From Lama guanicoe (Eukaryota): a stretch of 64,000 bases of DNA. A program made the position numbers and the translations under genes. Each line of letters begins with the position of its first letter. The first letter of the stretch is position 1. The notes beneath the pieces were generated by a model that did not search any database, was not told where the DNA came from, and saw nothing but the letters and a program-made list of their open reading frames with translations. The stretch is taken from the NCBI GenBank assembly GCA_013239625.1, contig MU055362.1, positions 7,346,634 to 7,410,633 on the forward strand. The letters run 5' to 3'. Below, piece after piece: positions 370 through 43,819 of the stretch.

Positions 370-471
370 GACGATGTGTGCCGGCGACGGAGAGCGGGCA
401 TCCTTGAGGGCTTGTCTGCTCTGGAGGGTCCCCGCCTGAACGTCCAGCAGTGGCCATTTCATCTGAAGATA
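370..471 (-). CDS. TCF7L2: TCF7L2 (TCF-4) internal coding exon 5, 102 bp, phase 0/0
   Basis: The minus strand reads ...ctttgcttgctccctgcag|TAT CTT CAG ATG AAA TGG ... CAC ATC GTC|gtaagtgac. It has a canonical AG acceptor with pyrimidine tract and a consensus GTAAGT donor. The translation YLQMKWPLLDVQAGTLQSRQALKDARSPSPAHIV matches recalled human TCF7L2 (…QAGSLQSRQALKDARSPSPAHIV) at 33/34 residues. Confidence 0.97.
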
Positions 472-6852: not shown

Positions 6853-6970
6853 TTTTCTTTTGGATGGGGGATTGAGTTTATTTATTTATTTTAATGGAGG
6901 TACTGGGAATTGAACCCAGGACCTGGTGCATGCTGAGCATGCGCTCTACCACTTGAGCTATGCCCTCCCC
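6853..6970 (-). mobile_element. Camelid tRNA-derived SINE (vic-1-like)
   Basis: The reverse complement reads GGGGAGGGCATAGCTCAAGTGGTAGAGCGCATGCTCAGCATGCACCAGGTCCTGGGTTCAATTCCCAGTACCTCCATTAAAATAAATAAAT, with A and B boxes and an AT-rich tail. Confidence 0.9.
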
Positions 6971-19207: not shown

Positions 19208-19312
19208 GGGAGGGAAAGAGCTCAGTGGAAGAGTGCATGATTTGCATGCACGAGGTCCTGGGTTCAATCCTCAGTGTCGCCATTAAAAATAATAAATGAA
19301 TAAATAAAAAAA
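19208..19312 (+). mobile_element. Camelid vic-1-like SINE
   Basis: GGGAGGGAAAGAGCTCAGTGGAAGAGTGCATG...GGTCCTGGGTTCAATCC followed by an AAAT tail; degenerate TSD aaatccgaa / aaatcccgaa. Confidence 0.88.
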
Positions 19313-33500: not shown

Positions 33501-33759
33501 CCTCAACCAGAAAGCCCTATGCAAATGAGAGAGACCCAGCATTACTTCCAAGGGCCCCAAATCCACCTCCAAGCCACCCTGATGGAGGGGACATGGAAAG
33601 ATAACGTCTCACACTGCTGAACGCTCTTCATCTGATGTAGATGCTATGGACTAATAACATACAGGGCCACAAAACAGCACTGCCAAGTTCTTCAAACTTC
33701 CTGCCACCATGTATTGTTCCCATTGGTCAACAGACACAGAGCAAACATTTACACTGACA

Positions 33760-33975
33760 GGAGGAGATGGAGTAGTTAAGCGCGCAGGCTTCTAAGCCCT
33801 TCCTCGCTGTGTGACTCTGAACAAGTCACCTGCCTCTCCTGTGTCAGTGTTTGCTCAGCGGGAAAAGGAGCATGCCTCACGCAGCAATGAAACTGCACAA
33901 TGTCCATCGACGGCTTAGCTCAGTAACCACTCAGTAAATGAGAGGCGCTTTAAGGTCTGATGCAGGGAGAGTCTG
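33760..33975 (+). promoter_or_regulatory. MIR-derived segment orthologous to the human rs7903146 enhancer site
   Basis: MIR-like core ('gctgtgtgactctgaacaagtcac...'). It aligns without gaps over about 95 bp to my recalled human rs7903146 flank and lies 33.4 kb from exon 5, versus about 41 kb in human. Confidence 0.75.
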
Positions 33976-36606
33976 TAATTTTCACCGTTTAAAGATGGGT
34001 CCTCTCGGCCCCTGGGCTGGTAGAGACGTTCTCATATTTGCAGTGCCCTCTGATGCCTCCCCTGCTCGATCCAGCTTTCCCCCTCTTTTCCTTTTGTAAG
34101 TGCTACCCTCCAAGAAAACTGAGACCTAAAAACAAAAAATGCAGAAGGGGGGTCTTCTATGGGATAACTTGCTTTAGTCCAACTCAATTTATACGTAACG
34201 AAACAGAAGGATGGTGTGTACAACCAGAAAGTGACGAAGCAAGAACAGCCCGTGGGCTCCGGTGTCCCGGGTCAGGGCTGCTCCCACAACCAAGGACTCC
34301 TCCCCTCTCCTCAGTCCCCGTCCAGTCTCAGCACCTTCTATAGTAAATCGGGAGTATCCTCAAACCATCCCTCCCTCCTCCTCCTTCTTTTAACTGTCAA
34401 GGCAGTTGATTAACCATCTCCTCCCCAGCATGCTGCAAGACACCGGGAACCAGGACAAACGTCCATGGGGAGCAGGCCCAGCATGATCAACTTATAATAT
34501 TAGGTCACTGATAAAACTGCTCAGCCAAAGAAGACACCCCTTACCTCCAAGAGCATCCATGAGGTAAGGGACTGGGTCTCCACAGGGCACCCCAGCTTCA
34601 GTGGGAGAGAAACCAACATGGAGCCTTGTCAAGCTTGACCCCGGGTCTGGGAAGGCAACCCTGAGAGGCAGGACAGAGCCGACGAGACCAGGAGACCCAC
34701 TGGATGGGCTGGTCCTCTCCGCTCCCTGGCCTCTTTCTTCCCTTGCAGGGGAAGGGTGCCAGCCCTTTCCTGGAAGGCAGCGGCTCTACAACTCTCTTCC
34801 CAGGGAGGCCCACAGACCTCTCGCTCCTTTTCAGCCTTTGGGGGACGGAAAAGTGACTAACAAGACAGACAGCATCACCATCATCTCCCCAGCCATCTCA
34901 CAGGGAGGCCCCCAGGCCCGGCGCCTCACTGCTTTCATCCTCTTGCCCTTTGGATGAACAGAACACCTCTGCAATCCTCGCTTCGTGTCATTTGAAGTTT
35001 CAAAACAAAACATCCTGACTCAAATCAAGATAAGCACAATTTCTTCATCTGCTTTTTCAAATACCGATGGACCTGTGGTCTGTCTAAACCAACTTACCCT
35101 GGTTAGACTGAGGCCTGCTCCGAGTTGAGAAATACTCTACCAGCCGTATGTATCTGAGTCTCAAAAGACGTCTAGTGGCTGAGGCTGTCGCTCCAACAGT
35201 GGCAGGTAGGGAGGATATCACCCAATTAACCATTTAACTGCAAAGCCCACAGCAAACATGCTCCAAGATCTCTTCAGAAGCCTACTGCTTCATTATTTTT
35301 TGAGGAAAAGGATACCTGAACAGGAATCTTGCTAAACTCCTTAGAACCTCGTGGAATTCAGCTCAGCTCCTCACTGAGCAGTTTCCCCCACCAGAACCCT
35401 GGGCTCTGGCTACAGCCCAGCGTCTAAGGGCCTATGACCTTCACCTCCCTCTCAGTCCCCTGATCTGGATATTTGAGGTAGAGATTCAATAATTCATGTG
35501 CTCACAATACTTCTGGAGCCCCCCGACAAGGAGGAACAAGCAATGATGCCGTCTGTCCCCGTGGAGCAAAGGGAAAAGACAGGTAAAGGAAGATGCCAGG
35601 TGTGAGTGGGGCAGGCACGAGAGGAGGGCAAAGACCCCTGAGCAGGAGGTTTCAGAGAGGGGCGCTCTGAAGGAGTGGCACCTAAGCCAACTTCACCAAA
35701 ACACCAGGCAGTGGTGGGCTTAGGAGAAGATGATCTGGACCACAGCCCAGGTGAAAGGTCTTCCCTCCCAGGTCAGTCCCTCCTTCTAGGCTCTCTGGCC
35801 TGTGGTGACACGCCCAGGGCCACCCCCGTGTGGAGTAAAATCCAGCACAGGCCAGGGTCTCCCCATCCCTAGTCAGCCCTGCCTGTGCAGGGAATGACAG
35901 CCCTGCAGGAGAGAGGAGGGGTCCCTTCATCGCCAGGGCTGAGGCAGAAAGATCACCACGAAACAAAAAACCAACCTCTAGCCACTGTCAGGGAACCAAG
36001 GAATCTCTTCGCAACTATCTCTGTGGGTAATCATGTGCTTCAGCTCGAAAAAAATTACAGCCATACTGTGCAGAGGTTAGGAGATTCTCTCCCCCACCAT
36101 TCCGCCCCCATCCCAGCCCCAAGTCACCTATCATGTTCTTCCCATTTACTTGCCCAAATCCCAGGTTCCCATTCACACCCAGGGAACCGCCCAGGGTTCC
36201 TCATAAGAGAGTTCAGGGATCTTCCTAGGTTCTTTCTGGTCAACAGAACCGCCATCCCTGTCTTGTCTTCTCATCCATGGGGAAAAGGAGAGAAAGAGGC
36301 AACACCAATTTGTAAAAATCGGGTCGAAACTCCAGTAGCTAGAGATTTAACTGATCTGAAAATGAGGCTTTTATTTTCTTGATGCTCCCAGGTGATTGTC
36401 CTGTGCAGTTAAGGTCAAGAACTCTTGGGTTACAAGAATGTAACTGATAGGTGTCTACCCGGTTATAACAATGTGGAGCGGGGTACTTAACATGACCAGT
36501 TTGTTTTATTTTTTTAACAGGCAATCTTTATATTGTCTCTGACAAACAAGTCACATGTTGCCATCTTGCCCAACACAACTGGCACATCTCAGAATCTGAG
36601 GTTTTA

Positions 36607-41535: not shown

Positions 41536-42083
41536 TCGTTATTCTTGATTTCTCTTGATGTTTCACATGTAGAACAGTTCTTAGCTCGGGGGAGATGCCA
41601 ATAAATATTTTTTAAATGGAAACACAAAAGATGGGCAACTCAGATTACAGCTCCCAGGGCACAAAACCCTAAATCAACCACAGCTGAGAATGCTTCACCT
41701 CAGCCTTGCACAGTCACTGCAGATATTTGGGGAGGGGGATGCAGAGAACTCAACACATGTCTTCATCCACCGATCTCTGTAAGACAGCCCAGGAACACCA
41801 CCAGTGACATGAAACGGGCTGGATCTGCTCAGGTCCAGGGATTCAGTGATGTTGAACCAGAAATTCCAAACCAGGGGTCCAGCAACACCAAAGAAAAGGG
41901 AGCAGGAGGTCAGGGCGGCACCCACCTGGGCGGAGTTCTCAAACATGACACCTTCTCAAAATCTTCCTAGGGACGAAGGGAGGGACGTGGAAAATGCCCT
42001 GATGCATCCTCTTAACCAGAGCCTGAGCACTTCTCCACCAGAGAGAAACACAGTGCAACAACAGTGACTTCGAAGTGTGCAGG

Positions 42084-42303
42084 NNNNNNNNNNNNNNNNN
42101 NNNNNNNNNNNNNNNNNNNNNNNNNNNNNNNNNNNNNNNNNNNNNNNNNNNNNNNNNNNNNNNNNNNNNNNNNNNNNNNNNNNNNNNNNNNNNNNNNNNN
42201 NNNNNNNNNNNNNNNNNNNNNNNNNNNNNNNNNNNNNNNNNNNNNNNNNNNNNNNNNNNNNNNNNNNNNNNNNNNNNNNNNNNNNNNNNNNNNNNNNNNN
42301 NNN
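42084..42303. other. Assembly gap (N run)
   Basis: Ns in the sequence. Confidence 1.
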
Positions 42304-42712
42304 AATCAACTTACTGCTTCTTTTAGGAACTAATCAGTTCTTGGGTAAGTGGGTGCCAAGCCTGCACTCTCAGAGCGAAACTAGCTCGAAGAAAGGAAGA
42401 AAGGCAAGAGAGGAAGAAAGATCCCCAGAAACACTGACTCACTCCCCAGCAAGCTCAAAACCAAGACATTTTCACTTTGCTTTCTGCAAGGCATGCATCT
42501 CCCGCTCCAGAAACTGCAATAGCTTGACCAGAGCCTCAGCACCAAGCAAGAGGAAGCCACCGACAATATTTCTTCAAAAAAAAAAGGGGGGGGACCACAG
42601 AATTACCCAGAAAATATTCCCCACTACTTTTTTATTCCCGCATCTTTGAAGATCACACTGTCCCCTTTATCTTTGCTCCTGGGTGCCTTTGATTTGAATA
42701 TAGGAACCCCAA

Positions 42713-42977
42713 NNNNNNNNNNNNNNNNNNNNNNNNNNNNNNNNNNNNNNNNNNNNNNNNNNNNNNNNNNNNNNNNNNNNNNNNNNNNNNNNNNNNNNNN
42801 NNNNNNNNNNNNNNNNNNNNNNNNNNNNNNNNNNNNNNNNNNNNNNNNNNNNNNNNNNNNNNNNNNNNNNNNNNNNNNNNNNNNNNNNNNNNNNNNNNNN
42901 NNNNNNNNNNNNNNNNNNNNNNNNNNNNNNNNNNNNNNNNNNNNNNNNNNNNNNNNNNNNNNNNNNNNNNNNNNNNN
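42713..42977. other. Assembly gap (N run)
   Basis: Ns in the sequence. Confidence 1.
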
Positions 42978-43179
42978 CTAAACTCTACCGGCTAACAGGC
43001 GGCCCTCCCAACTTCCAACAGCATTTTTTGGAAAGAGATTTCATGCCTCCATCCCAAAGTGAAGGTGGGCATTCACCTCGATGGGACCCCACCCACAGCC
43101 GCAGCCCGGGAGGCTCCAACACAGCGCCTCTGCTTTGGAAAAAAGCAGGGCTGCCAGGCCTCTTGCTCCTCAACAATGA

Positions 43180-43692: not shown

Positions 43693-43819
43693 GGGGGAGG
43701 GTATAGCTCAGTGGAAGAGTGCTGGCTTAGCATGCACAAGGTCCTGGGTTCAATCCCCAGGACTTCCATTAAATAAATAAGTATAAAACAAACCTAATCA
43801 CCCACCTTCTAAAAAAAAA
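43693..43819 (+). mobile_element. Camelid vic-1-like SINE
   Basis: GGGGGAGGGTATAGCTCAGTGGAAGAGTGCTGGCTTAGCATGCACAAGGTCCTGGGTTCAATCCCCAG; degenerate TSD agtaatcact / agtagccact. Confidence 0.92.

Follow-up and report, generated by a model that had tools for sequence, protein, structure and literature searches.

A decayed SINE in a camelid TCF7L2 intron very likely holds the counterpart of human rs7903146, with T probably being the base of the inserted repeat

The window, meaning the whole 64,000-nucleotide stretch of DNA analysed here, lies largely within an intron of TCF7L2, read on the minus strand. At 471-370 of this strand is an exon of 102 bases with AG..GT ends and 34 open codons. Although taken alone it had no TCF match in Pfam, its splice ends, its open frame and the same-gene PF08347 exons found on the same strand on either side of the window identify it as TCF7L2 exon 5 (370-471, minus strand), numbered as in the human gene. 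In extended coordinates, the TCF7L2 start codon falls at 72354 and the donor that closes exon 3 at 71489; the first exon is identical to the human TCF7L2 chain 2gl7_B at 53 of 53 positions. On the same strand, some 0.42 Mb upstream, there is a V-SNARE gene, and in human the upstream neighbour of TCF7L2 is VTI1A (PMC3349716). Because of exon 5, the PF08347 exons, the identity to 2gl7_B and the V-SNARE gene upstream, positions 472-64000 (minus strand) are read as intronic TCF7L2 sequence between exons 3 and 5. GC content falls sharply to 24% at 42001-43000, compared with 40-58% across the rest of the window, and stretches of N contribute to this drop.

The preliminary description singled out one base of this intron, 33900, and placed it about 33.4 kb from exon 5. 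The measured distance to the exon 5 acceptor is 33,429 bases, and that to the exon 3 donor is 37,589. For human rs7903146 the corresponding distances are about 41.4 kb and 47.0 kb, and both camelid distances fit a scaling of about 0.80. Exon 4, presumably 69 bases long as in the human gene, was found nowhere in the readable sequence between exons 3 and 5; the window is partly N, so this is not evidence of its loss. The camelid origin of the DNA is borne out by the globins of the same genome: beta-globin exon 2 agrees with 3gdj_B, of dromedary haemoglobin, at 74 of 75 residues, with E 7e-48 against 2e-42 for the runner-up, and among single alpha chains 3gdj_A matches best. The sole beta-globin difference is the llama/alpaca state, and a camelid of South America is likely. 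Elsewhere in the genome, matches to the TCF/LEF N-terminal family cross exon borders at G000:C811:173247-173789 (minus strand) and C3579:21375-21882 (plus strand), the former covering positions 1-198 in a single 323-residue open frame. Both are likely processed retrocopies.

What identifies 33900 is its surroundings. The preliminary description had set window letters at 33873-33965 beside a human flank sequence; the window letters are present as quoted, with A at 33900. Throughout, our comparisons between human and camelid are counts by eye against letters printed in papers, as opposed to program alignments. Counted in this way, 61 of the 93 letters of that human flank agree with the window, and its central 51 are identical to the TaqMan context given in both PMC13465029 and PMC12385235. 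The counterpart of that 51-base context occupies 33875-33925 (minus strand), where 33 of the 50 flanking bases agree without a gap (binomial P 3.5e-9 per position at p=0.26), an identity to human of 66%, which is modest. By comparison, the window's own 93-mer finds at best 43 of 93 matches elsewhere in 104 kb. Base 33900 is the centre of the ungapped fit. It is A on the plus strand and therefore T on the gene strand (33900-33900, minus), in agreement with the SNP-equivalent base originally proposed.

Published primers extend the comparison in both directions. The antisense primer of a human 113-bp amplicon (PMC11012241) corresponds to 33811-33833 (plus strand), with 16 of 23 bases matching at exactly the predicted distance of 89 bases. 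On the other side, at 33983-34008 (minus strand) and beyond the repeat modelled below, the forward primer of a human 136-bp amplicon (PMC4403887) matches at 18 of 26 bases. This amplicon, whose size is given in PMC5395748, spans 134 bases here; the primer letters in PMC5395748 disagree with those in PMC4403887, and the size alone was used from the former. The reverse primer of a human 201-bp amplicon (PMC4629960) matches at only 4 of 25 bases at its predicted place, but at 16 of 25 when placed 32 bases closer than in human, at 33758-33782 (plus strand) in the head of the repeat. A primer table in PMC8560867 appears to be swapped between SNPs and was set aside. Together with the printed context, the primers give four colinear anchors across about 250 bases, three of them inside the repeat. 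The claim that human and camelid are colinear without gaps thus holds for 33811-33925; it fails outside that interval, where there is a net 2-base difference within 33926-33982 and a net loss of 32 bases near 33796-33798.

Since most of this similarity falls within a repeat, the fit might belong to another copy. On that reading 33900 would match a paralogous repeat copy, or would be partly an artefact of the human letters first quoted, and the true counterpart would lie elsewhere or be deleted. The window does hold 20 further copies of the family, and 42 of the 93 human letters quoted lie outside the printed context. Short anchors by themselves are also found elsewhere: the 23-base anchor reaches at least 16 matches at 22 other places, and the 26-base anchor at least 18 at 11. 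The anchors taken jointly behave differently. As a null, the camelid anchors, standing in for the human letters, were slid over 504 kb on both strands (1,006,600 positions) with their own place masked. The best score for the context was 28 of 50 against the observed 33; for the context plus the 113-bp anchor, 39 of 73 against 49; and for three anchors, 48 of 99 against 67. Nowhere in the 504 kb was the joint score approached. In addition, print confirms the core of the quoted human string, the spacings of 89 and about 110 bases predicted from the amplicons are found as 89 and 108, the anchor from the 136-bp amplicon falls outside the modelled repeat, and gene, strand and intron are right. A search of the genome with 33700-34100 returned only the self-match, so the stretch is single-copy at that level, and a BLAST search of 33600-34200 against 104 kb found no further match below E 0.4. 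A paralogous or artefactual match is therefore very improbable. The flank identity, the published primers in their proper order and the lack of a rival place in 504 kb support the orthology that the preliminary description proposed. Gene, intron and orientation agree, similarity exceeds that of paralogous copies, colinearity extends outside the repeat, and a deletion is shared, as described below. We regard it as very likely that base 33900 is orthologous to the rs7903146 site.

The host repeat is a decayed copy of a tRNA-derived SINE at 33758-33918 (plus strand, antisense to TCF7L2), whose 3′ end may reach about 33945. BLAST is too insensitive for repeats of this age, and a profile search was used instead. 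A first search from the stretch itself gave 19 weak other matches, with E values up to 20. From these a family model was grown on 60 other copies, the focal copy always being excluded. Across 504 kb this model picks up 131 other copies, 20 of them in the window, and although it contains nothing of the focal copy, it matches 33763-33873 at E 2e-6, which supports the repeat context given in the preliminary description. The family is presumably MIR, a group of tRNA-derived CORE-SINEs. The majority sequence of the family has a tRNA-like head with a B-box motif, followed by a conserved core, and its copies are about 30-40% diverged. Rfam found just two tRNA-like matches, both far from the site. Elements resembling tRNA-Ala with A-rich tails occur at 6895-6967 (minus), 19211-19282 (plus) and 43694-43783 (plus), with 13 further matches at 81-88% identity in 504 kb. 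These are likely a younger tRNA-derived SINE family, as opposed to true tRNA genes.

Within the focal copy, the profile alignment ended at 33873, and a free global alignment put the site-bearing 3′ block differently. Because the global alignment was ambiguous in the 3′ half, ungapped blocks were used. Positions 33765-33795 fit family columns 16-46 (18 of 31 bases), and 33799-33873 fit columns 82-156 (49 of 75). The block that holds the site, 33886-33918, fits columns 191-223 at 19 of 33 bases; it is the weakest placement, equalled by 73 of 5000 shuffles. The focal copy retains the start of the head and the core, but its B-box segment is gone and its 3′ half is short of 22 bases. Such a copy would not serve as a template for RNA polymerase III.

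The two losses carry separate historical information. The distance between the 113-bp anchor and the site is 111 bases in the family but 89 in both the window and human, a spacing found in 2 of the 40 other copies that span both points. The loss of 22 bases is thus common to human and camelid. In columns 191-223, counted by eye, the two also have in common 4 bases unlike those of the family, which speaks for orthology as well. The head anchor and the 113-bp anchor are 85 bases apart in the family and also in human (174 minus 89), whereas the window has 53, which indicates that 32 bases, the B box included, were lost on the camelid side. That human and family agree at 85 also supports the shifted match of the 201-bp primer. 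These spacings bear on the age of the insertion. The human SNP is said to lie in a primate-specific SINE (PMC3349716). We agree that the site is in a SINE, but a camelid has a copy that is colinear with the human one and shortened in the same way, so the insertion should be older than primates, contrary to that statement. The passages on rs7903146 in PMC3028368, PMC2494685 and PMC12857168 give nothing on repeats or on its ancestry.

The family also bears on the ancestry of the base. Column 205, to which 33900 corresponds, is covered by 46 copies, with A in 35, G in 4, C in 4, T in 1 and a gap in 2; G is the equivalent of the human C allele. T on the gene strand is thus both the family base and the camelid base, and by parsimony it is ancestral, as the preliminary description held. 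PMC4880969 likewise calls the risk allele ancestral, yet also states that it did not derive from the chimpanzee root, and is ambiguous on this point. The camelid base, being that of the family column, is not one derived in the camelid line. The earlier caveat that T by itself is no evidence of adaptation is therefore well founded, T being the repeat family's own base, and it decides against an adaptive interpretation in camelids. In sequencing data (20 runs contain the stretch), no letter but A occurs at 33900 in any of the eight runs compared, which come from five organism labels; four of these runs are possibly the source of this DNA, the other four come from one organism label in three studies, and contigs drop rare variants. 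In this respect the site differs from human rs7903146, since these eight camelid runs show no C/T variation. Natural variants do occur nearby, at 33747, 33936, 33939, 33982, 34021 and 34034, all in runs of organism label C; among them 33936 A>C, 36 bases from the site, is seen in three of the eight runs.

It is useful to contrast the base with its context. Camelid and human have in common the gene, strand and intron, about 250 colinear bases, T at the site and both adjacent bases. They differ at 17 of the 50 flanking bases, 9 of them among the nearest 20, and in the camelid's net loss of 32 bases, which falls roughly 100 bases into the 3′ side. Of the flanking differences, 12 are A/T in human and G/C in the camelid, 1 is the reverse and 4 are neither, and the GC content of the 51-base context is 51% in the camelid versus 30% in human. 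In the printed human context, the T allele gives an unbroken A/T run of 18 bases, which the C allele splits; the longest such run in the 51 camelid bases is 3. A site with allelic islet enhancer activity is expected to have an A/T-rich core, and this core is not kept in the camelid.

Camelid physiology makes a functional reading attractive at first sight. Bactrian camel glucose is 6-8 mmol/l, ascribed to insulin resistance (PMC3514880), and allele-specific islet or beta-cell enhancer activity has been reported for human rs7903146 (PMC3349716, introduction). Together with the constancy of the T equivalent in all eight runs and five organism labels, these reports could suggest a functioning islet enhancer in the camelid copy, with T having the effect that it has in human risk carriers and helping to raise glucose and weaken the insulin response. 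However, T is what the repeat family itself has, so it would be expected in most mammals that retain the copy, and the A/T run is absent. Among 11 simple motif patterns searched in 33780-34020, there was only one FOXA-like and one homeodomain-core match, neither over the site. Moreover, in transgenic mice carrying human C and T constructs there was no robust allelic difference, even with human sequence (PMC3349716). A working enhancer of this kind is thus highly improbable. The FOXA-like motif, at 33848 (plus strand), falls in the repeat core some 50 bases away from the site. A search of openly accessible papers on TCF7L2 or rs7903146 and camelid glucose showed no camelid counterpart among the titles listed, and TCF7L2 is absent from the main text of the Bactrian camel genome paper (PMC3514880).

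The opposite possibility is that an islet enhancer present in the ancestor was lost on the way to camelids, through the 32-base deletion and erosion of the A/T run, and that this lowered beta-cell TCF7L2 and blunted insulin release. The deletion is a loss relative to both human and the family. In columns 191-223, counted by eye, there are 8 camelid-only changes, 7 of them from A/T to G/C, versus 2 human-only changes; human agrees with the family at 25 of 33 bases and the camelid at 19 of 33. The count of 8 versus 2 is nevertheless a small sample from human and camelid only, and the focal copy is not unusual for its family. In columns 191-223 its identity to the family is 0.58, compared with a mean of 0.63, and 6 of 24 other copies are as low; 6 of 24 also have as many A/T-to-G/C changes. 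In the core, the identity is 0.65 against a mean of 0.69, a level that 17 of 63 copies do not exceed, and 7 of 63 have as many such changes. A special G/C erosion of this copy is therefore unsupported, the copy being no outlier, and the same family comparison shows no excess conservation. We consider the loss of an ancestral enhancer very unlikely. A bolder version is a little less likely again: rs7903146 would lie in a pre-primate MIR, and camelids would be a natural knockout of the enhancer core, having lost the A/T run and 32 bases beside it, with lowered beta-cell TCF7L2 as part of the reason for their high glucose and poor insulin response.

Our preferred account requires neither enhancer gain nor loss. 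Base 33900 is very likely the counterpart of rs7903146 in a decayed SINE, where T is probably the base of the inserted repeat and likely has no special effect in camelids. A single SINE would have inserted before the human and camelid lines split; the 22-base loss shared by both lines would have followed, and then separate decay. The human C allele would have arisen later, in the human line. The focal copy may be decaying neutrally, a suggestion drawn from comparison with family copies and limited by the fact that enhancers can be active without conservation. The allelic effect in human may depend on local context, with T completing the 18-base A/T run at a site for which a review cites allele-dependent HMGB1 binding (PMC8073710). 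If this A/T context carries the human effect, the camelid T, with the run broken to 3, would not act as the risk allele does. Camelid glucose physiology accordingly gives no supported reason for a C/T comparison at this site, as the preliminary description had proposed: T belongs to the family, human and camelid differ at 9 of the 20 nearest flanking positions and the 18-base run is gone.

By itself the finding has little weight, since any multi-mammal alignment shows which base is orthologous to a human SNP, and adaptation cannot be judged from an ancestral base. This site probably does not explain camelid blood sugar. The host repeat, on the other hand, appears to be older than stated in PMC3349716. 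Finally, the camelid sequence is a natural variant that keeps T and has lost the A/T run, and it may therefore serve to separate the base from its context in the human effect.
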